From positions 1-64,000 of the IMG/VR virus record IMGVR_UViG_3300046535_000869: 64,000 nucleotides of DNA; one strand, written 5' to 3'. The notes beneath the pieces are model-generated. The model worked only from the letters and a program-made list of their open reading frames with translations. It was not told the origin of the DNA and ran no database searches. How positions within the stretch are numbered: position 1 is the stretch's first letter; each line of letters starts with the position of its first letter. The position numbers were made by a program, and so were the translations under genes. The stretch comes from a virus. Positions 17,858-30,400 of the stretch are shown one piece after another.

Positions 17858-18192
17858 CAGACCGCCGCCTGTCCGTACTGCTGTTCCTGGAGCAGCCATT
17901 CCTGGTGATGGTCCGGCCGCGACGTCGGCTTCTCCGCGATGACCAGGAAGTCCCGCCCGTCCACCTGAACCCGGTCGTCCCGCTTGATGGCGTAGCCTGG
18001 GTCGGTGTAGCCGACGTGGCTGACCTGACTGCCCAGCCGGTAGCCGATCTCGCGCTCGGCCGCTCCCGCCGCATGGAACCTGAACGGGAGCGCGGCATCC
18101 TGGACGACCGGCATCGAGACGAACCGACCGTGGTCGGACGTGCTCGTCGGCCGGGTCCAGACCGCGACCATGTTCAGGAGATGCGTGATCAC
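17857..18192 (-). CDS. Head closure / head-tail joining protein
   Basis: GTG start overlapping upstream TGA; IKRDDRVQVDGRDFLV...HHQE. Confidence 0.7.
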   Translation of the reverse strand: MITHLLNMVAVWTRPTSTSDHGRFVSMPVVQDAALPFRFHAAGAAEREIGYRLGSQVSHVGYTDPGYAIKRDDRVQVDGRDFLVIAEKPTSRPDHHQEWLLQEQQYGQAAV

Positions 18193-19148
18193 ATCATCCT
18201 CACGTACGGCTCGATGGCCCTGAGCACGTCCGGCGGGAGCATCGTCGTGATGTCCGCCCCAGCCAGCCGCCCGGACGCGAACTGCGCCGACCAGTCGCCG
18301 ATGTGCTCGGAGACCACCTCCGGGTCGTGCGGGTTGACCTTCCGCAGATACCAGTTCTTGACCGCCTCGACGACGCAGCGTTCGAGCGTCGACGGAAGCG
18401 TCGCGACCTCCACGGACGACCCGCCAGGCGCGGTCTCGTCGGTCAGTAGCCCGTTCAGGACGATGGTCTCGTCGGTGCGCTCGCGCACAATGAACCGGCC
18501 GTTGTTCTTGCGGTTCGCGAACCCGCGCAGCCGGACGATCTCGCCAGGAACCACCAGTGGCATGACCGGCGCGTCGTCGATGGCCGTCAGCACGCTCGTC
18601 CCGCTGGCCGTGATGGCTGCGACCGAATAGCCGGAGGCGACGATGTCGTCGTTGTGCGTGAGGTAGCCGCCGACGTAGGTCGCCTGCCAGGGAGCGCGCC
18701 CGTCCTGCTCCAGGCGGTCGACCGCCAGCCAGACGTGAATCGGCGCGTTGTCCGGCCAGCCAGACTCCCTGAAGACGATCCCAGCCTCGGCGTTGTGGAT
18801 GAAGATCCGGTCCAGGTTCAGGTTCGAGTTGTCGGCGTTGTTCTTGTCGTAGACGACGCCCGCGTCGCTGTGCTCGACCAGCTCGATGGACATGATCGGC
18901 GTCGTCTCTAGCAGCACGTTCGTCCGGCCGGTCCCGCTGAACCGCTCCTTGACTCGCTGCCGCAGGATGTATGGCCGGTCGATGTACTCCGTGATGGCCG
19001 CGCTCGCATCGGCGATCCGGTCTTCGAGCCAGGCGTCGCGCGCCGCGTCTGTGTCCGTCAGGTTCAGGTTCGCCTTCACGGTGTCCAGCGTCGCGAACGC
19101 CTCCGACTGAGGCGGGTAGAGGACCGTCACCAGGCCAGTGATACTCAT
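18189..19148 (-). CDS. Head-tail adaptor (gp6-like) with inserted domain
   Basis: ATLDTVKANL...ASAAITEYIDR...TYVGGY...SEHIGDWS...LPPDVLRAIEPY. Confidence 0.8.
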   Translation of the reverse strand: MSITGLVTVLYPPQSEAFATLDTVKANLNLTDTDAARDAWLEDRIADASAAITEYIDRPYILRQRVKERFSGTGRTNVLLETTPIMSIELVEHSDAGVVYDKNNADNSNLNLDRIFIHNAEAGIVFRESGWPDNAPIHVWLAVDRLEQDGRAPWQATYVGGYLTHNDDIVASGYSVAAITASGTSVLTAIDDAPVMPLVVPGEIVRLRGFANRKNNGRFIVRERTDETIVLNGLLTDETAPGGSSVEVATLPSTLERCVVEAVKNWYLRKVNPHDPEVVSEHIGDWSAQFASGRLAGADITTMLPPDVLRAIEPYVRMM

Positions 19149-20353
19149 GCGATGGCGACCTCCGTTGGGACATCCAGGTGCAGCTCGTCGCCGCCCGTCT
19201 CCAGCGCCAGCTCAAACTTCTTCGCCACGTTCTCCCAGGTGAACTCCGGCCGGTGGACCCGGTCGTAGCCTGCCTGGCCGAGCGCGACCCGCGTCGCCTT
19301 ATCTCCGTAGAGCTTGTCCAGCGCCTGGAGCATCAGCTCCTTGTCCGCCAGCCCGCCGATGACGTTCACGTCGTTCACGGTCGCCGCCGTCGACGTGCAG
19401 GGAACCTTCAGCACCGCGTCGCCTGGCCACTCGCCGAGCGCCGCCCAGTCCGGCACGATCTGCGGAATGCCGCAGGCCATCGCCTCCATCGTCGGGAGGC
19501 CCCAACCCTCGCCCTGGGTCGTGGTCATCATCGCGTCGAAGCAGTTGTAGATGCCCGCCAGGTACTGCTCCGAGACGCCGACGCCGGGAACCATCTTTGA
19601 GCTGGTGATAATCAGCTTGTTCCCGATGCCGTAGTAGTCGCAGAGCTGACGCACGTCCCAGCCCTTGTCGCCGGTCGGAGCCAGGTGCAGGTAGAGGTAG
19701 GCGTTGTCGATGCGCCTGGTCTTCACCCACTCGGCGAAGTACGCGATGGTCAGGTCCAGCCGCTTCCGAGGCTGGTTCCGGTTGATGTTGCCGACGATAA
19801 ATAGGTCCTCGCCGAGCCGCTTCGTGATACCCATCCGCTCGCGGGTCGCCGCCCGGTCCATCGGGCGGTAGATGCTGGTGTCGACGCCGTGCGGGATGAT
19901 GGTCGCCTTCCCGGAGTAGCCGCCCTTGCGGGCCTCGTCCAGGCCGAACTGCGTGTAGAAGATCGCCAGGCTCAGCCCGTTCAGCTCTCGGCCCTGGCAG
20001 TTCTTCCCGTCAACCGGCATGTAGGCGACGACCGGGAGCGCCGACGCGAACCGCTGAACGTAGTGCTTGACGTTCCAAGGGTCGTTCATCACCACCAGGA
20101 GGTCCGGCCGGATCTCCTTCAGGAGCGCCGGAACGCGCTGGATGCCGAAGGCGTCTCCGCCTCCTGCCGCCGGGTAGACCGCGTACGGGTGTGGCCCCTT
20201 ACAGGTCGGCCCATGCGGGTCGCCGAAGTAGTTGATGCCCAGAACGCTCACGTCCGCGACCGCGCCGAGAGGCGTGCAGACGTTCCGCGTCACGCGCGCG
20301 AACCCGGTCTCGATGCAGGCGTCGCCGTTCCAGAGATACTTCCGCTTGCTCAC
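19145..20353 (-). CDS. GT4-family (GT-B) glycosyltransferase
   Basis: TGFARV, IPHGVD, NRNQPRKRLD, GEGWGLPTMEAMACG. Confidence 0.9.
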   Translation of the reverse strand: MSKRKYLWNGDACIETGFARVTRNVCTPLGAVADVSVLGINYFGDPHGPTCKGPHPYAVYPAAGGGDAFGIQRVPALLKEIRPDLLVVMNDPWNVKHYVQRFASALPVVAYMPVDGKNCQGRELNGLSLAIFYTQFGLDEARKGGYSGKATIIPHGVDTSIYRPMDRAATRERMGITKRLGEDLFIVGNINRNQPRKRLDLTIAYFAEWVKTRRIDNAYLYLHLAPTGDKGWDVRQLCDYYGIGNKLIITSSKMVPGVGVSEQYLAGIYNCFDAMMTTTQGEGWGLPTMEAMACGIPQIVPDWAALGEWPGDAVLKVPCTSTAATVNDVNVIGGLADKELMLQALDKLYGDKATRVALGQAGYDRVHRPEFTWENVAKKFELALETGGDELHLDVPTEVAIA

Positions 20354-21246
20354 CGGCAAACCTCCCAGAATCCGTCCGCGATATCCTTCCAATCGAACCG
20401 CCGCAGGACCGCCTTCCGCTCCGCCTCGGTCACGGCCCGCCGTGGCTTCCGCAGAATCTCCTCGACGGACTCACGAACCGCCGCCGGTTCGGCCTCCGTC
20501 ACGTACTCCGCGTGCTCGCCATACCAGCCCCGGTAGTGCGGCTGGTCGAACGTAATCGGCCGCGCCCCGCAGGCCAGGCCCTCCAGCATGGGCAGCTCGA
20601 ACCCCTCGCCGCGCCGGAGACCAGAGACGTAGGCGCTCTGCGAGTAGGCGTCGACCAGGGCCTTGTCCGAGATGCCGACCCGGCACTCGACGTGCTCGCC
20701 CAGCTTCAGGTCCGGCCCCAGGTGGAACATTTTGCCGCCGACGTTCTTGACCGCCTGCGCGCATTCGCCAACACATTCGCTCTCCGAGACGTAACCGGAG
20801 GTCGCCATCAGGAACCGGCCATCGAGACCAGGCGTCTGCTGGAAGACCGAGCCATCGACGCCCAGAGGCGCGTGGTAGAACCGGAACGGGAGGTCCTGCC
20901 CAGGAGCCAGGTAGCCGTCCTGCCGCGCGTAGGACTCCAGGTCGTAGTAGCTCCAGACCGCCCGCGCGCCCGACCAGAGAGGGACCCAGACGTTCGGGTC
21001 GGCCGTCTCCGTCGACCGGAGGCAGTACTGGAGGACGACGTACGGCTTGCCCTGCTCCTTGACCAGCTCCGGCAGGTCCGTCGTCGGGTGTAGGTTCCGC
21101 AGGCCGATGACATGGTGAACCACCACGTCCGCCGCCTGGATGGTCGAGACCAGCCGGACGTCCTTCGGCGCGTGCGCCGCCAGCGCCATCGTGATGCGCG
21201 TCATCGCCCGGCCGAGCGCCTGGTGAGGCCAGAGGTAGACGTTCAC
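20350..21246 (-). CDS. GT-B glycosyltransferase (paralog of 46585..47442)
   Basis: EGFELPMLEGLACGARPI (E-x7-E motif); GTG start overlap. Confidence 0.8.
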   Translation of the reverse strand: MNVYLWPHQALGRAMTRITMALAAHAPKDVRLVSTIQAADVVVHHVIGLRNLHPTTDLPELVKEQGKPYVVLQYCLRSTETADPNVWVPLWSGARAVWSYYDLESYARQDGYLAPGQDLPFRFYHAPLGVDGSVFQQTPGLDGRFLMATSGYVSESECVGECAQAVKNVGGKMFHLGPDLKLGEHVECRVGISDKALVDAYSQSAYVSGLRRGEGFELPMLEGLACGARPITFDQPHYRGWYGEHAEYVTEAEPAAVRESVEEILRKPRRAVTEAERKAVLRRFDWKDIADGFWEVCR

Positions 21247-22031
21247 GCCTGCCCTCCGCTGGCCGTGAGCCAAGCCTTCGCGTCCCGAATCTCCGACCAG
21301 GGAATCGCGACCGCCTCGGCCGTGTTCCGGCCCGCGCAGACCGTGCAGCTTTCTGGCGTCTCCGTCTGCGTCAGGAACGCCCGGACCTTGGCCTCCGTCA
21401 CGCCCTCCACCTTCAGTCCATCCGTCCCATCCGGCCGGTCGAGCAGGAGCCGAGGGATGTACGGCGACGTGCAGCAGCGGTAGAAGTAGCCACGGTCGAC
21501 GACCCGGCTGAACGTCTTGAACCAGCAGGCGTCGAACCGCTTCGCCGCCGCCGCAGGAGCCGTCTTGGTCGTCAGGAGCTGGCTGAAGTTGGGGTACTTG
21601 CGCTCATCCTTCAGCTCGAACTGGACGCCCTCATCCGCCGCCTTGGCCCGAATCCAGGCGATGTCCGCGTCGGTCAGCTTGCCAGGGTAGGCGCTGACCA
21701 CCAGCACGTCGAACGCCTGCCAGAACTCCGGCTTCATCAACTTGAGCGTCTGGCCGTTCGTCCAGACCTCCACCTTGTCCGCGATGTCCGAATCGGTCGC
21801 GATGTGTAGGAGGTCGACCAGGCCCTTGTGCAGCGTCGGCTCACCGCCGAGCATCCCGTAGGCGTCCGCGTGCAGGACCGCGCCCAGGTGCTCCAGGTCC
21901 CGCTCCATCTGCTTCGGGTCGACTTCCTCGACCGGCTTGCCACGGAACATCGGGACGAAGTGGTTACAAGATACACAGTCGTTCTGACAGAGCGACGTGA
22001 CGTTCGTCTCCAGGTGCGGGATGTGGATCAT
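21243..22031 (-). CDS. Radical SAM enzyme
   Basis: CQNDCVSC (CxxxCxxC), GGEPTLH, TNG; extra C-terminal Cys residues. Confidence 0.9.
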   Translation of the reverse strand: MIHIPHLETNVTSLCQNDCVSCNHFVPMFRGKPVEEVDPKQMERDLEHLGAVLHADAYGMLGGEPTLHKGLVDLLHIATDSDIADKVEVWTNGQTLKLMKPEFWQAFDVLVVSAYPGKLTDADIAWIRAKAADEGVQFELKDERKYPNFSQLLTTKTAPAAAAKRFDACWFKTFSRVVDRGYFYRCCTSPYIPRLLLDRPDGTDGLKVEGVTEAKVRAFLTQTETPESCTVCAGRNTAEAVAIPWSEIRDAKAWLTASGGQA

Positions 22032-22714
22032 GGCGTGACTCCCACCAGCTCGATCTGCTCGAACACGTCCAGCCCGGAATTAGGTGTCGCGTTGAAGACC
22101 TTCACGCCCATCGCCGCGCAGCCCTCGCGCGCCGCGACGAACGCTCGACGCATTACCGCCGGGTTGGGCGGGAAGCTCTGGAAGCCCTTCGGCCAGTAAT
22201 CCGCCGAGAAGTGGTTCGCGTCCGGGCCGTCCGTCGTCCATGTCCGACCGCCCTCGACGACGCCGTCCAGGTTCCAGCGGAAGTCGTTGCCGAGCAGGAC
22301 GATCTCCGCGCAGCCCATGAACACGGCGAGCTGCAGCATCAGGTGCATCACCGTCCCGCCCCACTCGAAGGGAGGCGCGACCGCGAAGCCGGGATGCTCG
22401 ACCGGGCCTCGATTGAACGGCACGCCGACGCAGTCCTCGAACCCAGCGTGTCGCCGTAAGTCGTTCGGGATGAACTTCACTGAATCCACGGATTTGAGGT
22501 CATTCGAGTACTGTTTCGCGTCCAAAGCGTCCTCTAACGCCCAAAATGTGGTCTGATAACCGATCCGCGCGAAGTCGATGTAGATGCGGTTACAGCCGAA
22601 CGTCAGCTCGTTCTTCAGACTCGTCAAGTCCATCTGGCCGAGGCTCGGTCCGTTGCCGAACAGGTAGATGGTCCGGCCCGCATGCGCGCCCTGGAAGTCG
22701 GCAAGGTTCTTCAT
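22028..22714 (-). CDS. DUF115/Maf-like (GT42-like) CMP-sugar transferase
   Basis: IYLFGNGPSL...FGCNRIY...LQLAVFMGCAEIVLLGNDF...VFNAT. Confidence 0.75.
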   Translation of the reverse strand: MKNLADFQGAHAGRTIYLFGNGPSLGQMDLTSLKNELTFGCNRIYIDFARIGYQTTFWALEDALDAKQYSNDLKSVDSVKFIPNDLRRHAGFEDCVGVPFNRGPVEHPGFAVAPPFEWGGTVMHLMLQLAVFMGCAEIVLLGNDFRWNLDGVVEGGRTWTTDGPDANHFSADYWPKGFQSFPPNPAVMRRAFVAAREGCAAMGVKVFNATPNSGLDVFEQIELVGVTP

Positions 22715-23154
22715 GCCGCCGCCTTCTGCCGGTTCAGGACCGCGATGGCCTGGTCGACGTGCTCATCCTGGAGACCCTCCGCCCAGGTCGTTCTGACCAG
22801 GTGGTCGGAGACGTAGCCCATGTCGGCGTCGTCGTCCAGGACCACGTACCCGTCGACCGGCTCGGCCGTGTTGTTCAGCCAGTCGTAGATCTCGGTCCCG
22901 CGATCTTCGCCAGCCAGGTCCGCCGTCACGTCGATGACCTCCGCCAGCACGCCCGCCGAACCGAGTAGCCGGACGACGTCGCAGCTCGGCGACAGCCGCC
23001 AGGTCGACGTGACCACGATGACGGCCCCTGTCGCCTCCGTGATGACGTTCAGCCGCGCGATGGCGTCCAGGTCCAGCCAGCGCCGCCCGGCCCAGTCCGG
23101 CCAGCGCTCGAAGCCGTTGAGCACGCCGTCGAAGTCGAGGAAGACCACCTTCAC
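22711..23154 (-). CDS. HAD-superfamily hydrolase (HAD_SAK_2-like)
   Basis: FLDFDGVLN, IVVTSTWR, RGTEI, YVVLDDD. Confidence 0.85.
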   Translation of the reverse strand: MKVVFLDFDGVLNGFERWPDWAGRRWLDLDAIARLNVITEATGAVIVVTSTWRLSPSCDVVRLLGSAGVLAEVIDVTADLAGEDRGTEIYDWLNNTAEPVDGYVVLDDDADMGYVSDHLVRTTWAEGLQDEHVDQAIAVLNRQKAAA

Positions 23155-24278
23155 GCGCCGACTCCCGCGCGCGCCCGCGCGAACCGCTCCACCACGTCCG
23201 AACACTCCTCGTCCGAGATGGCCAGGTTCGGCCGGAGCCTGACCGTCCGATCTCCTGTCGGGAGCATGATGGTCGACTCCTCGTGCCACATGGCCAGGAC
23301 GAAGGCGTCCCGGACGACCTTGGACTCGAAGTCCATCGCCAGGAGGAGGCCGACGTTCCGCGCCCCGATGGCCGTCGCCAGCTCCTTGCCCTTACGCTTG
23401 ACGTTCGCCAGGATGTCGTACCGGTCGTACGCGCCGAGGATGGCCCGGCAGCGGATCATGTCCAGAAGGTCGCCGTCCCAGGTCGCCTCCAGGTGGTCCG
23501 GCGTCTCGAAGATGGCCCCGAACTTATCCGCGACCATCACGCCAGAGACCTGAGCCTTCTTCCCGAAGCAGACGATGTCCGGCGCGAAGCCGAGCTGCTC
23601 GAAGTACCACATGGTCCCGGTCCCGCCGAACCCGGTCTGAATCTCGTCGAATATCAGCGGAATCCCGGTCCGCGTGCAGAACCGCCGCGCGTCCGCCAGG
23701 AAGGCCCGGTCGACGACCCGGTCGCCAGCCGTGCATTGGATAGGCTCGATGATGACCGCCGCCAGGTCCATCGGCCAGTCGGCCGTCTGCCGCCCGCCTT
23801 GGCAGTAGAAGTCCGCCTGCGGGTAGTCCTTCGTCCGGCTCCAGGCAGGCCCGCCGGGAGCCGCCAGCATCCCAGCGACGCCGCTGATGCCGTGATAACT
23901 GTCGGCGAGTACGAGTATGCGCCGACGTTTAGTCGCCGCCTGCGCGACCTTGATGGCCGCGTCGACCGCGCTTGCCCCGGTCGTCGTGTAGTGGAAGAAC
24001 GTGAACGCCGACATGGCCGGGTGCAGCTCGAACGCCCGCGCGAAGCGTTCCGCCGAGTCCGTCGCCATCTCGCAGTTGGTAATCTTCACGCCCGCGTGAC
24101 GAAGGACCTCCGCGTGGAAGGTGTCGTTGTCGAAGGCCGGATGGTTGTAGCCCAGCGGGAGTGACGAGTACAGGCCGAACAGGTCCAGGACCTCCCGACC
24201 GGTATTCAGGTCGTAGAGGTAGGAACCGTGGCTCCGCGCCACGTCAATCTTGATGCCAAACTTGGAGGTCCTGTGCAT
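23151..24278 (-). CDS. Class III PLP aminotransferase (lysine epsilon-aminotransferase-like)
   Basis: LPLGYNHP, EPIQ, LIFDEIQTGFG, FGKKAQV. Confidence 0.9.
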   Translation of the reverse strand: MHRTSKFGIKIDVARSHGSYLYDLNTGREVLDLFGLYSSLPLGYNHPAFDNDTFHAEVLRHAGVKITNCEMATDSAERFARAFELHPAMSAFTFFHYTTTGASAVDAAIKVAQAATKRRRILVLADSYHGISGVAGMLAAPGGPAWSRTKDYPQADFYCQGGRQTADWPMDLAAVIIEPIQCTAGDRVVDRAFLADARRFCTRTGIPLIFDEIQTGFGGTGTMWYFEQLGFAPDIVCFGKKAQVSGVMVADKFGAIFETPDHLEATWDGDLLDMIRCRAILGAYDRYDILANVKRKGKELATAIGARNVGLLLAMDFESKVVRDAFVLAMWHEESTIMLPTGDRTVRLRPNLAISDEECSDVVERFARARAGVGA

Positions 24279-24279
24279 C

Positions 24280-25371
24280 TCAGTCCCGGTAAATGTGCTC
24301 GACGCCGTCCCGGCTCACGGCCAGCCGTGAGGCCCGGCCCTTCCCGGCCGCTGTGATCTGATGCCACTTGCCGCGCTCGATGAAGACCAGGTCGCCCTTC
24401 TTGACCGTCCGGGTCTGGTCCTCGATGGCGAACTTGTACTCGCCCTCCAGGATGAACCACCACTCGTCCCAGTCGGCGTGGTAGTGCCGCCGGTTCCCCT
24501 CGCCAGGGAGCTGACTGATGATGGTCGCGCTGTTCGACGGCGACTGGACGACCCGCCAGCCGAAGGACTGCCCCGCCGGGAACCGCTTCAGCAGCTCCGG
24601 GATGTTGACCAGCGGAACCGAGCCAGCCAGGTCGTTGGCCGACACGCCGTCGTCGTCCAGGACCTTCCCGGCATCGCACTGTGAGAACGCTGTGGACGTC
24701 CAGTACCGAGGCTTGACCGCGCCCGCGCGCCGCCGCGCGAGGACCAGCTCTGCGTCCTGAAAGTCCTGCTCGGTGTCGATGTCGATGGCCGCGTCGCCAG
24801 ACAGCCGGAGCCGCCGGACCCGCGACCCGAACCCATAGCTCCCGCATTTCTCGAAGGCCCCTCGCCGCCAGCCGAAGATGCCGTTGCAGAAGATCTCGAC
24901 CGGCTCCAGCTTCTGGCTGGGCAGCATCGGGAGCGCCGGGTCGAAGTTGATAGCCGTCTCGCCGAGCATCGTCTCTGCCTGGACCGCCCTCACCGAGACC
25001 ACCACGTCCGCGTCGTCCAGCGCCAGGACGGCTGCGCGCATGTCCTGCGCCGACAGGAACGGCGAGGTCGGCGTGATCTGGAACAGCCGGTTGACCTCCG
25101 GCATCGCCGCCAGGAAGTCCGCGACAAAGTGGTCGGTTGTGGCCTTGTCTCCAGCCAGCTCCGCCGACCGCCGGTAGCTGCTCGCGCCCAGCTCCTCGCC
25201 GAGGTTGAGAATCTCGTCGCTCTCGGAGTTGACGTAGACCTTATCGAACAGCCCGGACTCCCGCGCCGTCTCGACGACCCAGGCCAGGAGAGGCTTGCCG
25301 CCGAGGAAGCGGAGGTTCTTCCGAGGCACGCGCGTGCTGTGCAGGCGGGCCGGAATCATCGCGACCTTCAT
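24280..25371 (-). CDS. Acylneuraminate cytidylyltransferase (NeuA/KdsB-like) fused to a cupin domain
   Basis: IPARLHSTRVPRKNL...GKPLL...TSPF...DIDTEQDF; C-terminal HYHADWDEWW...GKWH cupin. Confidence 0.9.
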   Translation of the reverse strand: MKVAMIPARLHSTRVPRKNLRFLGGKPLLAWVVETARESGLFDKVYVNSESDEILNLGEELGASSYRRSAELAGDKATTDHFVADFLAAMPEVNRLFQITPTSPFLSAQDMRAAVLALDDADVVVSVRAVQAETMLGETAINFDPALPMLPSQKLEPVEIFCNGIFGWRRGAFEKCGSYGFGSRVRRLRLSGDAAIDIDTEQDFQDAELVLARRRAGAVKPRYWTSTAFSQCDAGKVLDDDGVSANDLAGSVPLVNIPELLKRFPAGQSFGWRVVQSPSNSATIISQLPGEGNRRHYHADWDEWWFILEGEYKFAIEDQTRTVKKGDLVFIERGKWHQITAAGKGRASRLAVSRDGVEHIYRD

Positions 25372-25877
25372 CGCGGTCTCCAGAGGACCATCGTGTCCTG
25401 CCGGAACATGACCGGAATCGGCTCAGGCTGCTCGCTCAGGAAGGTGAGCATCGCCAGCGTGACCTTGTCGAAGCTGGTCATCATGTCGTGGCAGACGAGC
25501 GCGTACTTGGTCAGCCGCCAGGCGTTGCGGAGGTCGACGAGCGCCTCGTCGTAGCCGTGATGGCCGTCGACATAGGACAGGTCGACCGGCGCGGTCTCGG
25601 CGGGTATCAGCGACTGCGACGGCCCGTCGAGGAACCGGACCTTCCCGCGATGCCCAGCTTTCTCCAGCAGCTCGACGATGTGTCTGTGGCTCCCGCGCCC
25701 CAGCCCGCCGTGGATGGTTCCCCAGGTGTCACAAAGTGTCAGGTCGATCTCCGGGTTCGCCGCGACGACCGTCCGCACGCAACCGCCCTCGTTGACGCCG
25801 ATGCCAAGGTACGTCTTGGCGCGCGGAGCCAGCTCGTTGAGGATCTCCCAGGAGCAGTGAGAGGCGGGCCAGTTCAC
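25368..25877 (-). CDS. Class I SAM methyltransferase (Methyltransf_24-like)
   Basis: YLGIGVNEG, YVDGHH, LVCHD. Confidence 0.75.
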   Translation of the reverse strand: MNWPASHCSWEILNELAPRAKTYLGIGVNEGGCVRTVVAANPEIDLTLCDTWGTIHGGLGRGSHRHIVELLEKAGHRGKVRFLDGPSQSLIPAETAPVDLSYVDGHHGYDEALVDLRNAWRLTKYALVCHDMMTSFDKVTLAMLTFLSEQPEPIPVMFRQDTMVLWRPR

Positions 25878-26557
25878 GCCGCCCTCCACTTCTGGAGCGC
25901 GACCCAGCCGCCGAACTGCGCGCGCGCCAGGGACTCGTCGTCGAACAGGAAGCCCGCCGCCTCAAGGGCCGAGACTGTCTTGGCACGGTCCTCGCCAGGC
26001 GGGACTTGATGGAATTCGATGAACAGGTGCGTCGCCGAGGCCAGCGCGCCAGGCATCCCGCGTACGGCCGCGTCCTCCGCGCCCTCGATGTCCATCTTGA
26101 TGACATCCGCCCGCCGACCAGACAGCGCCAGGATGGTGTCGAGGCTCTCGCACTCGACCAGGACAGCGTGACCCGCACTGCCGTGTACGGCCCCAGCGAT
26201 GGACATGGACAGCCCAGGCTCCGGTTTGATGAGCCGCATCAGCCCGTCACCAGCGCCGACCGCGACGCAATGCAGGTCGACCCGCTTGTCGTTGAGGTAC
26301 AGCTCGGCCAGCATGTCAGCCCGCTCCCGCTCCGCCTCGATGGCGACGACTACTAGGGTCGGCTTCCCGAACTTCAGCGCCAGGGCCGTGTAGAACCCGT
26401 ACTCCGCGCCCGCGTCAACCACCACGTCGGCCGACCGGACCGCGTCAACGAACGCCTGTGAGTAGGGTTCCCACCGAACGTTGGCCTGCTCCGTCCCGAC
26501 CATTAGGTCATGGCAGATGTCCAGGGTCGCCTTCTGGCCGTAGGTCTTCTCGGTCAC
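25874..26557 (-). CDS. FkbM-family methyltransferase
   Basis: VVDAGAEYGFY, SLD, VIKMDIEGAE, IEFH. Confidence 0.9.
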   Translation of the reverse strand: MTEKTYGQKATLDICHDLMVGTEQANVRWEPYSQAFVDAVRSADVVVDAGAEYGFYTALALKFGKPTLVVVAIEAERERADMLAELYLNDKRVDLHCVAVGAGDGLMRLIKPEPGLSMSIAGAVHGSAGHAVLVECESLDTILALSGRRADVIKMDIEGAEDAAVRGMPGALASATHLFIEFHQVPPGEDRAKTVSALEAAGFLFDDESLARAQFGGWVALQKWRAA

Positions 26558-27108
26558 TTGACCATCTCCGGCATGAAGGAACAGTAGAGCCAGTGGAACA
26601 TCATCATCGCCACGTCCTCGGCGACCGCGTTGCTGTCGGTCTCCAGGTCGATGGTGATGTCCGCCTTCTCCGAGACCGGCCCGCGCTTGCCGACAACCGC
26701 CGCGACGTGCATATTCAGGAACTTCGCGCGCGCGACCGCCTTGGTCAGGTTGGCTGACTTCCCGGACCCGCTGAAGACCACCAGGAGGTCGCCCGGCTCG
26801 CCGAGGGTGTCGAGCTGGGCCGCGAACATATTGTCCGCGCCGAAGTCGTTGACCGCTGAGGACAGCATGAACCCGCTGTTCAAGGAGACCGCCCGCATGC
26901 CAGCGCCAGCCTCGCGCAGCACGTTCAGCGACAGGCCGAGCGCCAGGTGGTCAGTGACCGTGCCGCCGCCGCCGTTGGCCGCTGTGTAGATGGTCCCGCC
27001 ATTGTCGTTGACCCGCTGCACCAGGAGCCGGAGCGCTTCGGCCCGCTCGAACGGGAGCTTCGCCGCCTTCTGGGCAACCGCGTCGACGTACGACCAGCAC
27101 GTCTTCAC
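26554..27108 (-). CDS. SIS-domain sugar-phosphate isomerase (GmhA-like)
   Basis: IYTAANGGG, VNDFG, GDLLVVFSGSGKSANL, AED. Confidence 0.85.
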   Translation of the reverse strand: MKTCWSYVDAVAQKAAKLPFERAEALRLLVQRVNDNGGTIYTAANGGGGTVTDHLALGLSLNVLREAGAGMRAVSLNSGFMLSSAVNDFGADNMFAAQLDTLGEPGDLLVVFSGSGKSANLTKAVARAKFLNMHVAAVVGKRGPVSEKADITIDLETDSNAVAEDVAMMMFHWLYCSFMPEMVK

Positions 27109-27662
27109 GGCTTCCTCCAGGCCCCGATGCCGCCCCAGTCGCCCCTGACGGTCCACTCCAGCTTCTCGCCAGCCAGGCCCGCCCAGTACGCCGGGACGCC
27201 GCCCTTCTCCCAGACCTCGAACGCGCTCGCCGCCGCGTTGATGTCGTGGAAGACGATCCAGCCGCCGGACCGTACCAGCTTCCCGTAGTCGTCCACGTCC
27301 GCCGTGACGCCGTCGAGGCTGTGGTCGCCGTCGATGAACAGCATGTCAACCGGGTCGCCATCGAGCTGCTCGACCACCTTGAGCCAGGTCGCCTTGTGAT
27401 GGCTGTCGCCGGAGATACAGATGACGCCGACCAGGGCCGCGTTCCGCTTGGCGGTCTGGGCCTGGTTCATCCCGGTCGTCGAGCCTTCGATCTTGTCGAC
27501 CGTCACGGTCTTCCCGGACGCGATATTCGACAGGAGCTGCGTGACGCCGCCAGGCCCGGTCCCAATCTCCAGGATGGTCTTCGGCTTGACCTCCTCGGCC
27601 AGCCAGCGCGAGAACGGCTGGATCTCGTCCGGCCATTGGAGCATCGGCAGGGTGACCTTCAT
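27105..27662 (-). CDS. Class I SAM methyltransferase (Methyltransf_24-like)
   Basis: ILEIGT, LFIDGDHS, GGWIVFHDI. Confidence 0.9.
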   Translation of the reverse strand: MKVTLPMLQWPDEIQPFSRWLAEEVKPKTILEIGTGPGGVTQLLSNIASGKTVTVDKIEGSTTGMNQAQTAKRNAALVGVICISGDSHHKATWLKVVEQLDGDPVDMLFIDGDHSLDGVTADVDDYGKLVRSGGWIVFHDINAAASAFEVWEKGGVPAYWAGLAGEKLEWTVRGDWGGIGAWRKP

Positions 27663-28357
27663 GGCTTCACCGTCCGACGCTCAGCGTCCGACCAGGGAGC
27701 CAGCCGCCCGTCGCGAATCGGAGCCAGGGTCAGCTCAGGGTAGACCGCCTCCGGGAGGTTGAACGCCAGCATCCCGCCGGTCCCTGTGCCTGGATGGATA
27801 CTGTCGTACCTGGCCGCGACCGCCGCCCGCTCGGCCCGCGACTTGACGAGGAACTTGTGGTGCTCGATGAGGACCGGCGCTTCAGAGCCGCCGCCGAACG
27901 GCGATCCACAATGGATGCTCGTCCGCCCGCCCGCCATCGCCTTCACGCTCAGGCGCGTCTGGTGGTCCGGGAATAGCTGCGGCGACAGGATGACCCAGCC
28001 AGGCGTCTGCCAGAGGCTCGCGCGGGCGAACTTCCAGTGGTCTGCCGCGAAGTAGCGCTCCTCCGCCAGCCAGTCCGCCATCGCAGGCGAGGCTTTCTCG
28101 TCGTCGTCTAGCCGCAGGATGTACTTGCCGGAGCACTCCGCGACCGCGTAGTCGTGGACCGACTCCAGGTAGCCGTGTGACTGAACCGGGACGATCTTGC
28201 AGGGAAGCTGCCTGGCGAGGTCCTCGGCGTCTTGGCCGTCAGCCGCGATGACGAACTCAGCCCGGCAGCGCTCAGCCAGCGCCGACATGGCGCTGAGGAA
28301 CGGCCAGGCGTGTCGCTCGCCCTTGCTGACGCAGAGGATAGTGAGGTTCGGTTGCAT
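27659..28357 (-). CDS. GT2-like (GT-A) glycosyltransferase
   Basis: CSGKYILRLDDDE (DxD), PDHQTRL. Confidence 0.8.
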   Translation of the reverse strand: MQPNLTILCVSKGERHAWPFLSAMSALAERCRAEFVIAADGQDAEDLARQLPCKIVPVQSHGYLESVHDYAVAECSGKYILRLDDDEKASPAMADWLAEERYFAADHWKFARASLWQTPGWVILSPQLFPDHQTRLSVKAMAGGRTSIHCGSPFGGGSEAPVLIEHHKFLVKSRAERAAVAARYDSIHPGTGTGGMLAFNLPEAVYPELTLAPIRDGRLAPWSDAERRTVKP

Positions 28358-28390
28358 CTGCCCCTGACGAACCGATGTGGTCCCGATGAT

Positions 28391-28428
28391 AGAGAGAAGG
28401 CCCGACGACCTGGTTGCCGCCGGGCCTT
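28391..28428 (-). terminator. Hairpin/terminator after the decoration-like gene
   Basis: AAGGCCCG...CGGGCCTT followed by CTCTCT on the minus strand. Confidence 0.55.
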
Positions 28429-28455
28429 GTGATTACGTGCTCAAGCCGTCAGCCG

Positions 28456-28974
28456 TTAGGCTGGCGGGTTGTGGTCGAACCCGCCGAGGACTGCGACGCA
28501 GCCGCCGATGGTCACCACGTCGACGCCGGAGGCCGACAGCGTGGGCGTCAAGGACAGCTTGACGTACCGCTTCGCGCCGCTCAGGTCGATGTTCACGAGT
28601 CCGCCCGCGTCCAGGTCGATGGCCGCGCCGCTGTTCAGGGCGGTCACGGTCAGCGTGTCCGGCGCGTCGCCGTAATCGGCGTACGCATCGGCGACGCCGT
28701 CGTCGTCCGAGTCCTGGATGCCGATGGCGAAGATCGCCGTGTGGCCCGACGCCAGGACGGCGTGTACCGGGATGGCCGGGATGAGGCTCAGCGCCACGTC
28801 CGGGTCGCAGCGGTCAATCGCGATGCCCGCGATGGCCGTCCCGCTCCCGCCGTGGCCCGCGCCGACAATCGATCCGGCCGCGATGCCAACCACTCGCTTC
28901 GTGTAGGCTCCAGCGTTCTCCTGTCCCGCGAGCGCGGCTCCAGGCGTGACGCCAGGGCTGTCTGTCAAGTTCAT
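28456..28974 (-). CDS. Capsid decoration/cement-like protein
   Basis: Directly after MCP; AIDR...IQDSDD...AKRYVKL pattern common in HK97-like post-capsid genes. Confidence 0.6.
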   Translation of the reverse strand: MNLTDSPGVTPGAALAGQENAGAYTKRVVGIAAGSIVGAGHGGSGTAIAGIAIDRCDPDVALSLIPAIPVHAVLASGHTAIFAIGIQDSDDDGVADAYADYGDAPDTLTVTALNSGAAIDLDAGGLVNIDLSGAKRYVKLSLTPTLSASGVDVVTIGGCVAVLGGFDHNPPA

Positions 28975-29004
28975 GTTCGAGTCCTCCCTAAGAAAGCCTT
29001 GTTG

Positions 29005-29032
29005 AGAGAAGGCCGACCACCAGGTCAGCCTT
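29005..29032 (-). terminator. Hairpin after the major capsid gene
   Basis: AAGGCTGACC-TGGT-GGTCGGCCTT followed by CTCTCAAC. Confidence 0.5.
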
Positions 29033-29049
29033 CCCTTGGTGTCACGCTC

Positions 29050-30270
29050 TTACTGCGCCCACTTCACGCCGGTCAGGTGCGCGATGGCCTCACGGTGCTG
29101 CGGAACCAGGTCGACCTCGTTGATCACGCGAAGCGCCGAGGCGTTCCGCTGATAAAGCGAGAAGACCGAGCCGTCCGACTGGACGATGGTTCCCTGGTCC
29201 GTCATGTCCACCTGAATCTGTGCGCCCTGGCCGAGCATCAGCTCGTCGCCGTCGTACAGGAAGATCAGGGACTCGTCCGCCCCGGTGCCGAGCGTGCTCG
29301 GAATCTGGGTTGACGAATCGAACGGGAAGCCCCACAGGGTTCCCTTGGACATCTCCGGTGCGAACACCTGGTTGCCGTTGCCGTCGCGCGCGGTGAACAG
29401 ATAGATCTTCGTGCGCGGTGACATCGCCCAGGCCCCGCCCGTCATCGGGACGTTGCCGTTCTCCATCGCGAGGAGCAGCCGACCCAGGTCGCCGGTCACT
29501 TCGGCCAGCTTCTGTGCGTCGGTCCCGGTGAAGGTCGTCGAGGCCAGGCGGTTCGCCGATGGCGTCCAGTACTGGAGGCCCTTCGGACGGTGCGCCGAAC
29601 CCGGCGACGTCAGGAACACGGAGTCCTCGCCGATGGCCAGCGCGCGCAGCGTGCTGTTGCGAACGATCTGCGCGACGCGCGGCCCGCCCCGACGGAGGAA
29701 CGTGTTGGAGAACGGCACGAGCGCCTTCTCCTGGTGCGCGCGCATGATGATCTGGTCGGTGCTGGGCTGAGAATCGCGAATCTCCTCAACCTCTCCGCCC
29801 CAGCTCACCGCCGCGTCAGCCGTGACGCGCGGCATGTCGACCTGTCCGGCCGAGATGTCGATGGTCGCCTTCACGCGCCGACGGACAACCGTCATGGGTG
29901 CGAGAAGGTCAATCACCTGTTGGCTCTGCTCCGGCGCGAAGAACACGCCGCCAGCGTCCGCGACGCCCGACTCCAGGGCCTTCGTCACGAAGTCCTTCTG
30001 GTTGTCGGGAATCATCGACCCGGCCTTCTTCACGTTGTCGATGGCGATGTCCTTGCTGCCCTTCGCGCCCTGGAGCGCGATGGCGATGTAGCCGAGCATC
30101 AGCCCGCGCTGTTCGGCTTCGTAGGCGCGGTCGACTTCGTTCCCGGCGAGCTGTGCGGCCTTCTCGGACACGCCCAGGTCCGCCCGGCGCTCGTGCATCG
30201 TCTTGAGCGCTTCGGCGACGACCTCGCCTGCGGTGTTGCGTACGAGATCTGTCAATTCCTTCGTGTTCAT
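29050..30270 (-). CDS. Major capsid protein (HK97 fold)
   Basis: AGGVFFAPE...WAMSPRT...ARDGNG...TLWGFP; follows the prohead protease. Confidence 0.93.
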   Translation of the reverse strand: MNTKELTDLVRNTAGEVVAEALKTMHERRADLGVSEKAAQLAGNEVDRAYEAEQRGLMLGYIAIALQGAKGSKDIAIDNVKKAGSMIPDNQKDFVTKALESGVADAGGVFFAPEQSQQVIDLLAPMTVVRRRVKATIDISAGQVDMPRVTADAAVSWGGEVEEIRDSQPSTDQIIMRAHQEKALVPFSNTFLRRGGPRVAQIVRNSTLRALAIGEDSVFLTSPGSAHRPKGLQYWTPSANRLASTTFTGTDAQKLAEVTGDLGRLLLAMENGNVPMTGGAWAMSPRTKIYLFTARDGNGNQVFAPEMSKGTLWGFPFDSSTQIPSTLGTGADESLIFLYDGDELMLGQGAQIQVDMTDQGTIVQSDGSVFSLYQRNASALRVINEVDLVPQHREAIAHLTGVKWAQ

Positions 30271-30400
30271 GGCTCCTGCCTCCCTCGTGGCTGCTGCCGC
30301 GCCGTCTCCCGGCGATCTCCGGTTAACGGCTTCTCCTCGTGGCCAGACGGAGTGTCTGGTTCGGCGCGGTCGAGCGCCTCAGCCACGAAGTAGTTCCTGC

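Follow-up and report, generated by a model that had tools for sequence, protein, structure and literature searches.

PMC11600133, citing Freeman et al. 2023, refers to the modification of phage capsid and tail proteins by phage-encoded glycosyltransferases and an O-methyltransferase. Phage gene clusters that attach Kdo or heptose to hydroxymethylcytosine and contain a cytidylyltransferase have also been reported (bioRxiv 10.1101/2023.12.21.572611).

The locus described here lies in an uncultured soil phage (IMG/VR record IMGVR_UViG_3300046535_000869; 102,082 bp), of which positions 1 to 64,000 constitute the window, i.e., the whole stretch of DNA analyzed (64,000 nucleotides). The original prediction held that nine genes in this window form one pathway, by which the phage remodels a host precursor into an unusual CMP-activated, aminated, and methylated cap resembling sialic acid. 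That view holds only in part, as the run combines two nested modules. One is a backbone module, probably for virion glycosylation, and the other is an inserted sub-cassette encoding a NeuA-cupin fusion, a class III aminotransferase, and an SIS-domain protein together with an FkbM methyltransferase, a small HAD protein, and a Maf/CstII-fold transferase.

Organization of the operon

Open reading frame calls and Pfam, NCBIfam, and PHROGs profile matches placed all nine named domain genes, among them the three methyltransferases, at the predicted coordinates on the minus strand (Table 1). The run is translationally coupled as predicted and exceeds the nine genes, reaching from the GT2 gene via two GT4 genes into the connector gene. 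Its junctions are all ATGA or GTGA overlaps (GTGA at the rSAM stop codon and GT1b, ATGA between GT1a and the connector gene), the sole exception being a 2-nt gap before the aminotransferase gene. Based on these overlaps, three starts were shifted downstream, namely those of SIS (to 27108), MT24a (to 25877), and HAD (to 23154), the first two being GTGA coupled. The interval is part of one long translationally coupled late operon situated between the major capsid gene and the head-tail connector gene. The major capsid protein is 31-37% identical to annotated counterparts in Burkholderia, Marinobacter, and Rhodobacter phages, and the connector flank is likewise present in the backbone-only loci L121-L124.

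Table 1. Genes of the late operon and its flanks, in the order of the minus strand
Feature	Position	Strand	Module	Profile matches
HK97-type major capsid protein (MCP)	29050..30270	-	Upstream flank	PF05065 E 1.4e-29
GT2 (GT-A fold) glycosyltransferase, first gene of run	27659..28357	-	Backbone	
MT24b, Methyltransf_24/CmcI-rhamnosyl-O-methyltransferase-like SAM methyltransferase	27105..27662	-	Backbone	PF13578 E 1.2e-12; PF04989 E 4.5e-9
SIS, GmhA-related SIS-domain protein	26554..27108	-	Sub-cassette	PF13580 (SIS_2) E 2.8e-9
FkbM-family methyltransferase	25874..26557	-	Sub-cassette	PF05050 E 4.3e-12; TIGR01444 66.8 bits, above cut-off
MT24a, second Methyltransf_24 methyltransferase	25368..25877	-		PF13578 E 1.3e-8
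NeuA-type CMP-sugar synthetase + metal-binding cupin	24280..25371	-	Sub-cassette core	PF02348 95.3 bits; PF07883 54.5 bits
Class III (omega-type) aminotransferase, L-lysine 6-transaminase-like	23151..24278	-	Sub-cassette core	PF00202 E 1.3e-52 (179 bits)
HAD, small stand-alone phosphatase-like protein (HAD_SAK_2 family)	22711..23154	-	Sub-cassette	PF18143 89.5 bits
Maf/GT42 (CstII)-fold transferase, DUF115/MptE-like; presumed CMP-sugar transferase	22028..22714	-	Sub-cassette	PF01973 30.2 bits, below cut-off 34.6
rSAM, twitch radical-SAM enzyme, SpeY/BtrN sugar-dehydrogenase type (fold, cysteine motif)	21243..22031	-	Backbone	PF04055 20.9 bits, below cut-off 29.5
GT1b, GT4-like glycosyltransferase	20350..21246	-	Backbone	PF13524 E 7.4e-7
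GT1a, GT4 glycosyltransferase	19145..20353	-	Backbone	PF13692; PF13524; PF00534
Head-tail connector-like protein	18189..19148	-	Downstream flank	PF05135 E 9.4e-5

The proposal that the nine genes act as one pathway did not survive comparison with other phages. Among 40 viral loci with the rSAM family, the partners were GT2 (28-31 of 40), GT1a (27-29), and GT1b (16), and backbone-only loci lacking NeuA carried MT24b (12 of 40) and MT24a (n = 4; adjoining the rSAM gene in L121, L122, L126, and L128). Only one of the 40, the L060 phage, had NeuA, aminotransferase, or SIS. GT2, rSAM, and GT4 genes recur jointly in about 30 other viral contigs, of which L060 alone has NeuA as well. The same sub-cassette and the same backbone occur in L060 and the sister contig L061, in three different gene orders.

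The backbone module

The window GT2 protein had no Pfam match, and its homologue in L060 had a weak match to PF00535. An ESM Atlas feature score of 0.97 and a structural TM of 0.80 against GT2 clusters place it in this family. In L060, the MT24b-like stretch sits within a crude 408-aa MptE-like ORF.

The radical SAM assignment was upheld despite its weak profile score. The protein has the CxxxCxxC motif (C15-x3-C19-x2-C22) and further invariant cysteines (C169, C186, C187, C229, and C232). Its AF2 model (pLDDT 96.3) closely resembles the structure of SpeY, a twitch sugar dehydrogenase (Foldseek, 7x0b, E 4e-21, TM 0.84, 29-30% identity), followed by BtrN (4m7t).

The NeuA-cupin fusion and its partners

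The fusion of a NeuA-like cytidylyltransferase to a cupin was also correctly recognized. The cytidylyltransferase belongs to the NeuA clade, and its catalytic motifs are intact. Its NeuA part has the invariant residues R9, S12, R14, K18, N19, and D197-I-D199...D203, and its cupin part has H296-x-H298...E303...H337. The search returned 1183 relatives at E <= 1e-5, and both domains were present in 120 of the 120 matches listed. The NeuA domain scored closest to PseF and NeuA, not KdsB.

A class III aminotransferase accompanies the NeuA-cupin gene in 81-87 of 120 independent loci, and in the 61 viral loci both it and SIS were found in 52, with a GT29-like or MptE-like gene in 40. SIS, aminotransferase, and NeuA-cupin are a conserved uncharacterized module, and no paper describing the NeuA-cupin module was found in the literature. 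The window aminotransferase scored 237.9 bits against TIGR03251 (cut-off 520.8), and its best PDB match was M. tuberculosis LAT (E 6e-48). Both its PLP-lysine motif (FGKKxQVxGVM) and an R-x-R-P motif at the C terminus are conserved. There is no obvious oxidant for it within the sub-cassette.

The SIS protein proved to be GmhA related, with phosphoheptose isomerases as its best PDB matches (E 1e-15) and 78 bits against TIGR00441 gmhA (cut-off 209). As a canonical GmhA it was rejected, as the H-E-Q-H tetrad is missing and reads H-G-E-H. At position 74, 90 of 94 module homologues keep an acidic residue, which the phage SIS lacks. The protein may have changed its function or lost activity.

A HAD gene is present as predicted, with a DFDGVL motif I visible in the sequence. 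It belongs to HAD_SAK_2 and not to the KdsC/NANP type, which was rejected on this basis. No PDB relative was found by sequence search, and all Atlas clusters were HAD_SAK_2, which are common in phages; we know of no sugar role for this family. The gene has the same position in L060 and is missing from L061, where it is therefore dispensable. The FkbM methyltransferase was common only to the window and L060 among the comparison loci.

The Maf-like transferase was recovered in the same operon. It matched the PHROG "alpha-2,3-sialyltransferase" (E 3.6e-6) and has a conserved N-terminal G-N-G-P-S motif, and the top Foldseek matches of its AF2 model (pLDDT 93.3) were Maf 5mu5 (E 4e-7), CstII, CstI, ST8SiaIII, and PmST. 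MptE-like genes of this kind are present in 8-9 backbone loci without a phage NeuA, and so the transferase need not use a phage-made donor.

Distribution of the module and missing enzymes

The NeuA-cupin module is not particular to this phage and is common across bacteria, archaea, and viruses. In cells, the trio of SIS, aminotransferase, and NeuA-cupin lies in or near legionaminic acid loci. The nearest cellular relatives of the window NeuA-cupin are a sister clade of Acidobacteriota and Nitrospirota copies, which together with the aminotransferase gene are placed between a PglD-type acetyltransferase and PtmE-LegB-LegC genes. NeuB and NeuC are also in the locus in L002, L003, and L006. A separate LegF is often present in cellular loci, and NeuA-cupin is therefore not simply a legionaminic acid activator. 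Most viral and many marine cellular loci have DHQS-like and SDR genes with the trio instead of Leg genes; in the phage, HAD occupies their place. Full reading of six cellular loci (L008, L016, L019, L023, L053, and L054) showed 2-hydroxyacid dehydrogenase, GFO, SIS, SDR, DHQS-like, and NeuA-cupin genes in each and the aminotransferase gene in five. About 20 "minimal" viral loci have SIS, aminotransferase, and NeuA-cupin with no oxidoreductase within 10 kb.

The reported lack of NeuB and KdsA in the window extends to the rest of the genome, as no NeuB or KdsA/DAHP synthase family gene, and no condensing synthase of another usual type, was found in the 102,082-bp record. Genes for NanA, DHQS, SDR, GFO, 2-hydroxyacid dehydrogenase, DegT, NeuC, and PtmE were likewise absent from the whole phage genome. 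NeuB was present in four of five cellular genomes tested, and in three of them it lay on the contig of the module, no more than about 10 kb away from the fetched locus. No NeuB was found in five viral records, of which two are at least 93% complete. The missing condensing synthase and cellular-type enzymes make dependence on a host precursor plausible, and the viral copies of the module, consistently reduced relative to cellular ones, also fit the use of one.

Proposed function and alternatives

On balance, we favor the view that the sub-cassette makes a CMP-activated amino sugar acid from a host precursor for virion glycans. The host would supply a sugar acid precursor or sugar phosphate, and a carbonyl would arise from SIS or a cupin isomerase or else from the radical-SAM dehydrogenase. 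The omega-type aminotransferase would put a primary amine on this carbonyl, HAD would remove phosphate, and the NeuA domain would couple the product to CMP. The Maf-like enzyme would then move the sugar, perhaps as a cap, onto virion protein glycans built by the backbone glycosyltransferases, with the FkbM and Methyltransf_24 enzymes O-methylating the glycan.

A specific version of the host precursor idea, which we consider unlikely, is diversion of a legionaminic/pseudaminic-type nonulosonic acid from the host. Here, a presumed host NeuB-type synthase makes the nine-carbon acid, the aminotransferase and cupin alter it, and NeuA reactivates it for the Maf-like transferase. The legionaminic surroundings of the sister clade and the PseF/NeuA-like scores agree with this. 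Maf proteins are the known pseudaminic and legionaminic acid transferases, and the presumed transferase has its best fold match in Maf. However, C5 and C7 of both acids are fully substituted and C9 is deoxy, leaving an omega-type transaminase few positions unless oxidation comes first, and in most viral and many marine cellular loci the trio keeps company with DHQS-like and SDR genes instead of Leg genes. More doubtful is an aldolase-free route from sedoheptulose 7-phosphate to a seven-carbon sugar acid. In cells, it would use SIS, GFO, 2-hydroxyacid dehydrogenase, DHQS-like protein with SDR or phosphatase, aminotransferase, and NeuA-cupin, and in the phage the middle oxidations would fall to host enzymes or the radical-SAM dehydrogenase. 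The gene set of the six fully read cellular loci gives each enzyme a plausible step, the five viral records have no NeuB, HAD stands where DHQS-like and SDR genes are found elsewhere, and a SpeY-like alcohol dehydrogenase is in the same operon. On the other hand, GFO, 2-hydroxyacid dehydrogenase, DHQS-like, and SDR genes are missing from the phage, its SIS lacks the nearly invariant acidic residue, and in 39 of 40 loci the rSAM family is not accompanied by the trio. As NeuB is near the module in three of five cellular genomes, "aldolase-free" is unproven even in cells.

That the target is not the virion is improbable, although the hydroxymethylcytosine clusters offer a precedent for glycosylated phage DNA, and the host cell surface could be remodeled during infection instead. 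The genes follow the capsid gene and are coupled to the connector gene, with the same placement in L121-L124, and the genome has no Tet/JBP dioxygenase, thymidylate synthase/dCMP-hydroxymethylase family gene, or tyrosine integrase. Highly improbable is a product that is no ulosonic acid at all, such as a teichoic acid-like CDP-linked amino-alditol phosphate. In this scheme, SIS would yield an aldose phosphate whose aldehyde the omega-transaminase would aminate, giving a 1-amino-1-deoxy-alditol phosphate that the NeuA-fold enzyme would turn into the CDP derivative. This would explain the minimal viral loci and suit lysine aminotransferase-like enzymes, whose substrates are terminal aldehyde/amine pairs. 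Yet all characterized PF02348 relatives that were matched are CMP-ulosonic acid synthetases, the recurrent partner transferases (GT29-like, Maf/CstII-like) have sialyltransferase-type folds or Pfam matches, and in cells the module is set in a context of nonulosonic acid biosynthesis.

Comparison with related loci

Virion glycosylation with a host-derived amino sugar acid is the reading we favor for an operon whose module differs from its cellular counterparts, which carry the DHQS, SDR, GFO, and 2-hydroxyacid dehydrogenase genes that the phage lacks. Its framework is that of other phages: the order in L122 is MCP, GT2, MT24b, MT24a, rSAM, GT4, GT4, and connector, from which L123 and L124 differ in lacking MT24a. 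This is the gene order of the window without the sub-cassette.

Genome setting and operon layout

The window covers the initial 64 kb of a 102,082-bp IMG/VR record, which CheckV rates as complete. The G+C content is about 65% across the window, and the interval 21243-27662 shows no compositional break. A DNA similarity search found no relative of the window among 50,697 phage records, and the HK97-type capsid protein is just 31-37% identical to its counterparts in Burkholderia, Marinobacter, and Rhodobacter phages. The genome yielded no tyrosine integrase, and the window no tRNA genes.

The original prediction had described a coupled run of sugar-modifying genes, and ORF calls and domain searches confirmed this run with its named domains, as part of a unit that is larger than first reported. 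On the minus strand, the gene series is uninterrupted from a GT2 glycosyltransferase gene to a head-tail connector gene (Table). Neighboring genes in the run meet at ATGA or GTGA overlaps, with a 2-nt gap preceding the aminotransferase gene as the sole exception, and three start codons were re-set on the basis of these overlaps. A consensus scan of 18000-30500 detected no sigma-70-like promoter and terminators only at chance level.

A small gene for a Gly/Ala/Asp-rich protein of 172 aa, without family match, separates the capsid gene from the glycosylation operon, and its product may serve as a decoration protein or as a glycan acceptor. The gaps following the capsid gene and following this small gene each hold a G+C-rich hairpin (9-bp stem, loop of ~10 nt) and then a T/C-rich tract on the coding strand. 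Both hairpins were spotted by eye, as the consensus scan was limited to loops of ≤8 nt and omitted them. A possible role is to attenuate read-through into the glycosylation operon from the capsid gene.

Table. Positions of the features in the window and in the comparison loci (L-numbers)
Sequence	Position	Strand	Feature
Window	28975-29049		Intergenic gap with hairpin
Window	28456-28974		Gene for 172-aa protein
Window	28358-28455		Intergenic gap with hairpin
Window	28357 to 18189	-	Uninterrupted gene series
Window	27659-28357	-	GT2 glycosyltransferase, 5' extension of the coupled run
Window	21243-27662	-	In transcription order: Methyltransf_24/CmcI-like, SIS, FkbM, Methyltransf_24, CTP_transf_3 + Cupin_2 (NeuA-cupin), class III aminotransferase, HAD, MptE/DUF115-like, radical-SAM
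Window	27108	-	SIS, re-set start
Window	25877	-	MT24a methyltransferase, re-set start
Window	23154	-	HAD, re-set start
Window		-	Two GT4 genes, then connector gene, 3' extension of the coupled run
Window	19145-22031, 27659-28357	-	GT2/radical-SAM/GT4 genes
L060	12652-13878		MptE/Maf-like ORF, 408 aa
L060	14050-14412		DUF6527 gene
L001	537-1805		BNR/sialidase-like beta-propeller gene (PF13088)
L003	8652-9935		Homologue of the L001 gene
L006	5668-7434		CTP_transf_3 cytidylyltransferase-GFO/IDH/MocA fusion, 588 aa

A putative CMP-sugar sub-cassette within a probable glycosylation operon

Gene co-occurrence speaks against the idea that the run forms a single pathway. Among 40 viral loci bearing the radical-SAM gene, its partners were GT2 (n = 31), the GT4 genes GT1a (n = 29) and GT1b (n = 16), and the methyltransferase MT24b (n = 12), whereas NeuA-cupin, aminotransferase, and SIS occurred in just one, the contig of L060. 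The viral locus L122 reads capsid, GT2, MT24b, MT24a, radical-SAM, GT4, GT4, connector, and L123 and L124 have the same order minus MT24a. This layout is that of the window without SIS, FkbM, NeuA-cupin, aminotransferase, HAD, and the Maf-like gene. The sister contigs L060 (161 kb) and L061 have the sub-cassette genes of the window within the same backbone, in differing gene orders and, in L061, without HAD. Most simply, these layouts can be read as the insertion of a CMP-sugar sub-cassette into a pre-existing capsid-side glycosylation operon; on co-occurrence, the radical-SAM enzyme and one or more of the methyltransferases then fall outside the CMP-sugar route.

GT2, a SpeY-like twitch radical-SAM dehydrogenase, and GT4 form a conserved set of their own in ~30 uncultured viral contigs (L121-L154), adjoining capsid and/or connector gene homologues in L121-L124. 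The set suggests that virion glycans contain a keto-sugar, or one modified further, independently of the CMP-sugar cassette.

The predicted radical-SAM protein scores 20.9 bits in Pfam, under the threshold of 29.5, and its structure model is of high confidence (pLDDT 96.3). In 30 homologues, the cysteines of the CxxxCxxC motif (C15, C19, and C22) are invariant, as are five more (C169, C186, C187, C229, and C232), which are candidate ligands for an auxiliary [4Fe-4S] cluster. The model matches SpeY (7x0b/7wzv) with a query-normalised TM of 0.84, an rmsd of 2.5 Å over ~266 columns, 29-30% identity, and an E value of 4e-21; this match extends over the whole chain, with the C-terminal twitch domain, and BtrN comes next (TM 0.55). 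Its ~160 relatives are all metagenomic. A role as dedicated oxidant for the aminotransferase would fit the fold, yet given the co-occurrence in 1 of 40 loci it was kept as a possibility for the clade of the window alone.

Enzymes of the sub-cassette

The NeuA domain of the NeuA-cupin scores 95.3 bits against PF02348 (cut-off 22.6) and does not reach the equivalog scores of PseF (TIGR03584, 98.1 vs 205.7 bits) or KdsB (TIGR00466, 33.2 vs 155.2 bits). Across 18 aligned homologues, the window protein among them, R9, S12, R14, K18, N19, D197, I198, D199, and D203 are invariant. Both NeuA motifs are intact, namely the N-terminal nucleotide-binding P-A-R-x-G-S-x-R...K-N and the acidic D-I-D...D, and the cupin metal site H-x-H...E...H is complete and invariant in the same 18 sequences.

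The assignment of a GmhA-like SIS isomerase was borne out in part. The protein belongs to PF13580 and its nearest PDB relatives are phosphoheptose isomerases (E 8e-16 to 1e-12), in line with the SIS fold, whereas the score against the GmhA equivalog TIGR00441 is 78.4 bits, below the cut-off of 209.45. The active-site/metal tetrad of GmhA, as in the E. coli and B. pseudomallei enzymes, is His-Glu-Gln-His; the window protein has H70, G74, E180, and H188 at these positions. Three loci show the canonical H, E, Q, H, the majority of SIS proteins in related modules carry H, D, E, and Y/H, and G74 is common only to the window, L060, and L061.

The aminotransferase (PF00202, 179 bits) is of class III fold and retains the PLP lysine and a C-terminal arginine. 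It aligns with the lysine epsilon-aminotransferase (LAT) of M. tuberculosis at FGKKxQVxGVM and R-x-R-P, with a near-identical PLP-lysine segment, and is shorter (375 vs 449 aa). Its score against L-lysine 6-transaminase (TIGR03251) is 237.9 bits in two stretches, under half of the cut-off of 520.8. In the HAD protein, motif I (DxDx[T/V]) can be read as D-F-D-G-V. HAD_SAK_2 (PF18143), a small family frequent in phages, was its sole Pfam match; no NCBIfam match and no PDB relative were found, and the protein does not fall within the KdsC/NANP subfamily. HAD_SAK_2 is not known to have a sugar role.

The MptE/DUF115-like protein scores 30.2 bits against PF01973, below the gathering score of 34.6, and its homologue in L023 scores 62. 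Its structure model (pLDDT 93.3) ranks Maf 5mu5 first in the PDB (E 4e-7), followed by CstII/CstI (E 4e-5 to 3e-4), ST8SiaIII, and a Pasteurella sialyltransferase, with a TM of ~0.5-0.58 to Maf/CstII-type structures. In the N-terminal G-x-G-P-S motif, conservation is complete at G22 and S24 and at least 90% at P23. The model points to a Maf/GT42-fold transferase that is predicted to use a CMP donor. In L060, the 3' part of the crude Maf-like ORF resembles the MT24b methyltransferase of the window, and the ORF may be either a fusion of transferase and methyltransferase or an artefact of crude ORF calling that joined two genes. A DUF6527 gene with no counterpart in the window lies between the Maf-like and radical-SAM genes of L060.

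The trio of SIS, aminotransferase, and NeuA-cupin is widespread

The trio itself is widespread beyond this phage. The NeuA-cupin has 1183 metagenomic relatives at E ≤ 1e-5, and both domains are present in 120 of the 120 matches listed. It was absent from the 50,697 phage records in a protein search, where the sole match was a partial NeuA in a Moritella record. Loci were fetched from bacterial and archaeal genomes (n = 59) and viral contigs (n = 61), and their ORFs clustered. Across these 120 loci, a class III aminotransferase was found in 81-87 and a SIS protein of the same subfamily in ~91, along with SDR (n = 75), DHQS-like (n = 67), GFO/IDH/MocA (n = 43), and D-2-hydroxyacid dehydrogenase (n = 37) genes; GT29-like genes occurred in 38 and MptE-like genes in 33.

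Viral loci are reduced. Aminotransferase and SIS accompany the NeuA-cupin in 52 of 61, both plus a DHQS-like gene in 30, and a sialyltransferase-like gene is present in 40, while GFO or 2-hydroxyacid dehydrogenase occurs in only four and NeuB in two. About 20 viral loci have the trio without any oxidoreductase within 10 kb. Full searches of five viral records, of which two are at least 93% complete, found no NeuB. Three marine viral loci (L063, L110, and L118) share the order GT29-like, NeuA-cupin, an unknown 133-aa protein, aminotransferase, SIS, sulfotransferase (PF03567), and GT10-like, which suggests a sulfated form of the glycan. The NeuA-cupin of L011, from a MAG labelled Thaumarchaeota, is almost identical to that of the viral locus L069 (branch lengths ~0.04-0.05), and the gene order of L011 is that of the viral locus L085; this 13.9-kb "archaeal" contig is probably of phage origin and was placed in the MAG by binning.

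Several cellular operons combine 2-hydroxyacid dehydrogenase, GFO, SIS, SDR, DHQS-like, and NeuA-cupin genes, most with the aminotransferase too. NeuB was present in four of five cellular genomes tested, and in three it lay on the same contig, ~10 kb or less from the fetched locus. In a quick maximum-likelihood tree, the well-supported clade that contains the NeuA-cupin of the window has 16 members, all soil viral or metagenomic sequences, and its sister group comprises the copies of one Acidobacteriota and one Nitrospiraceae MAG. These phyla (Acidobacteriota/Nitrospirota), as the nearest cellular sources, give a hint of the host and not a host call.

In the nearest cellular loci, the NeuA-cupin/aminotransferase pair sits amid PglD-type acetyltransferase, PtmE, LegB-, and LegC-type genes (gene roles after PMC4481668, in which PtmF (326 aa) is an oxidoreductase and PtmA (254 aa) a flagella modification protein). 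L002, L003, and L006 have NeuB and NeuC as well, and each carries a second NeuA/LegF-type gene. In L002 and L003 this is a shorter NeuA-like gene without cupin; in L006 it is a fusion of LegF-PtmF type, so that this locus encodes two different CMP-transferases. The legionaminic acid gene context ties the NeuA-cupin to nonulosonic acid biology, and, given the separate NeuA/LegF-type genes, its role is not just to activate legionaminic acid. Next to the NeuA-cupin gene of L001 (Acidobacteriota) lies a BNR/sialidase-like gene, which has a homologue in the corresponding part of L003 (Acidobacteriota).

Proposed route and alternatives

The window had been noted to lack a NeuB or KdsA synthase, and this was borne out for the rest of the genome: six-frame profile searches of the whole 102,082-bp record gave no match to NeuB (PF03102), KdsA/DAHP synthase (PF00793), or NanA/DHDPS-type lyases (PF00701), while control genomes gave matches. 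By these searches, the record lacks the PEP-condensing synthase, or the NanA-type lyase, that a complete pathway to CMP-nonulosonic acids or CMP-Kdo would have. Members of the accessory gene families from related loci (DHQS-like, SDR, NAD epimerase/dehydratase, DegT, GFO/IDH/MocA, D-2-hydroxyacid dehydrogenase, PtmE, NeuB, NeuC, PglD-type acetyltransferase, and GT29-like) were used as tblastn queries against the record and returned nothing beyond genes already listed.

We regard as most likely, with moderate confidence, a route in which the sub-cassette would turn a sugar acid or sugar phosphate of host origin into an amino sugar acid activated with CMP. This sugar would then be attached by the Maf-like enzyme to glycans built on a virion protein by the GT2/GT4 backbone, with O-methylation by the FkbM and Methyltransf_24 enzymes. 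The main gap is the carbonyl for the aminotransferase, which may come from SIS or the cupin acting as isomerase, from the SpeY-like dehydrogenase, or from a host enzyme. A target other than the virion is an alternative; a virion target is favored by the position between capsid and connector genes, the translational coupling to the connector gene, and the precedent of Cluster O mycobacteriophages as summarized in PMC11600133.

As to the sugar, the phage could modify a legionaminic or pseudaminic-type acid of its host. The gene neighborhoods of cellular NeuA-cupins fit such an acid, whereas the retention of a separate LegF in cellular loci implies that the substrate of the NeuA-cupin differs. 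Another candidate is an aldolase-free route from sedoheptulose 7-phosphate to a seven-carbon acid, but the oxidising enzymes proposed for it are absent from the phage record by tblastn. The product might also be a CDP-amino-alditol, though the sialyltransferase-type fold of the Maf-like protein speaks against it. More ambitious, and in our view rather improbable, is that the trio makes an undescribed class of CMP-activated amino sugar acids or mimics without a NeuB/KdsA-type aldolase, that phages cap virion glycans via a stripped-down set, and that in the soil-phage clade the resident SpeY-type dehydrogenase supplies the carbonyl.

Three further ideas were rejected for this phage. An aminocyclitol or carbasugar would require a DHQS-like gene, which the phage lacks, and may apply to other cassettes; no PEP mutase was found for a phosphonate (CMP-aminoethylphosphonate) route; and for DNA glycosylation, the phage has neither Tet/JBP nor a thymidylate-synthase-like gene.

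Significance

CMP-activated sugar acids (sialic, legionaminic, and pseudaminic acids and Kdo) are the outermost and immunologically foremost sugars of many cell surfaces. If the product of the sub-cassette is a new sugar acid, the very small class of CMP-activated sugars would gain a member, and phages would be shown to coat their particles with this acid. In a literature search, no paper was found on the gene combination of the trio or its product; the SugarBase preprint reports new CMP-ulosonic acids, none of them assigned to trio genes. New here are the soil-phage clade without DHQS-like enzyme, the nested two-module architecture, in which the cassette behaves like a movable unit placed within an older glycosylation operon on the capsid side, and a SpeY-type radical-SAM protein in a conserved phage GT2/GT4 module. 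The phage virion glycosylation systems cited do not list an enzyme of the type of this putative sugar dehydrogenase. Both modules are of a size that permits direct laboratory reconstitution.

Comparison with known systems

Bifunctional nucleotidyltransferase-cupin enzymes are known from the PMI-GMP type (AlgA/ManC class). They share with the NeuA-cupin an N-terminal sugar nucleotidyltransferase and a C-terminal metal cupin, and PF01050 is among the precomputed Pfam domains of several NeuA-cupin homologues. The nucleotidyltransferase families differ (PF00483 vs PF02348), and the PF01050 match of the window protein is below threshold (16.6 vs 23.6 bits).

The CMP-Kdo pathway consists of KdsD, KdsA, KdsC, and KdsB, and its 8-amino branch (Kdo8N) in Shewanella uses the oxidase KdnB and the aminotransferase KdnA. 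The common logic is a SIS isomerase, a HAD phosphatase, a cytidylyltransferase, and terminal amination of a sugar acid. In contrast, the phage has no KdsA, its SIS is GmhA-like without CBS domains, its HAD is HAD_SAK_2 and not KdsC, and its NeuA domain matches KdsB weakly (33-53 bits vs cut-offs of 155-281). The phage aminotransferase is from a different family than KdnA, and there is no KdnB-type alcohol oxidase.

The flagellin Leg/Pse-Maf systems of Campylobacter, Plesiomonas, and Magnetospirillum resemble the phage set in the NeuA/PseF-clade cytidylyltransferase and in a transferase matching Maf 5mu5 best. Cellular relatives of the NeuA-cupin and aminotransferase lie amid PtmE, LegB, and LegC, some with LegH, LegG, and LegI (PMC4481668). 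The phage is without NeuB/LegI, NeuC, LegB, LegC, and PtmE; its cytidylyltransferase is fused to a metal-binding cupin, and its aminotransferase is class III (lysine-aminotransferase-like) and not DegT.

In Cluster O and related mycobacteriophages, an O-methyltransferase and three tandem glycosyltransferases are described as modifying capsid and tail-tube proteins (Freeman et al. 2023, cited in PMC11600133). The passage of PMC11600133 describing this set does not list a radical-SAM enzyme, CMP-sugar synthetase, aminotransferase, or Maf-like transferase. To the extent of that description, the likeness is that glycosyltransferase and O-methyltransferase genes lie among structural genes, the backbone of the window, known here from its genes, being placed between capsid and connector.

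SpeY belongs to spectinomycin and BtrN to butirosin biosynthesis. The phage radical-SAM protein resembles them in its structural match to SpeY, then BtrN, and in the CxxxCxxC motif, and it has a further set of C-terminal cysteines. BtrN is a twitch-domain radical-SAM dehydrogenase with a small-molecule substrate (PMC10114671). SpeY and BtrN reside in aminoglycoside gene clusters, whereas the phage enzyme is encoded in a structural operon with GT2/GT4 partners.
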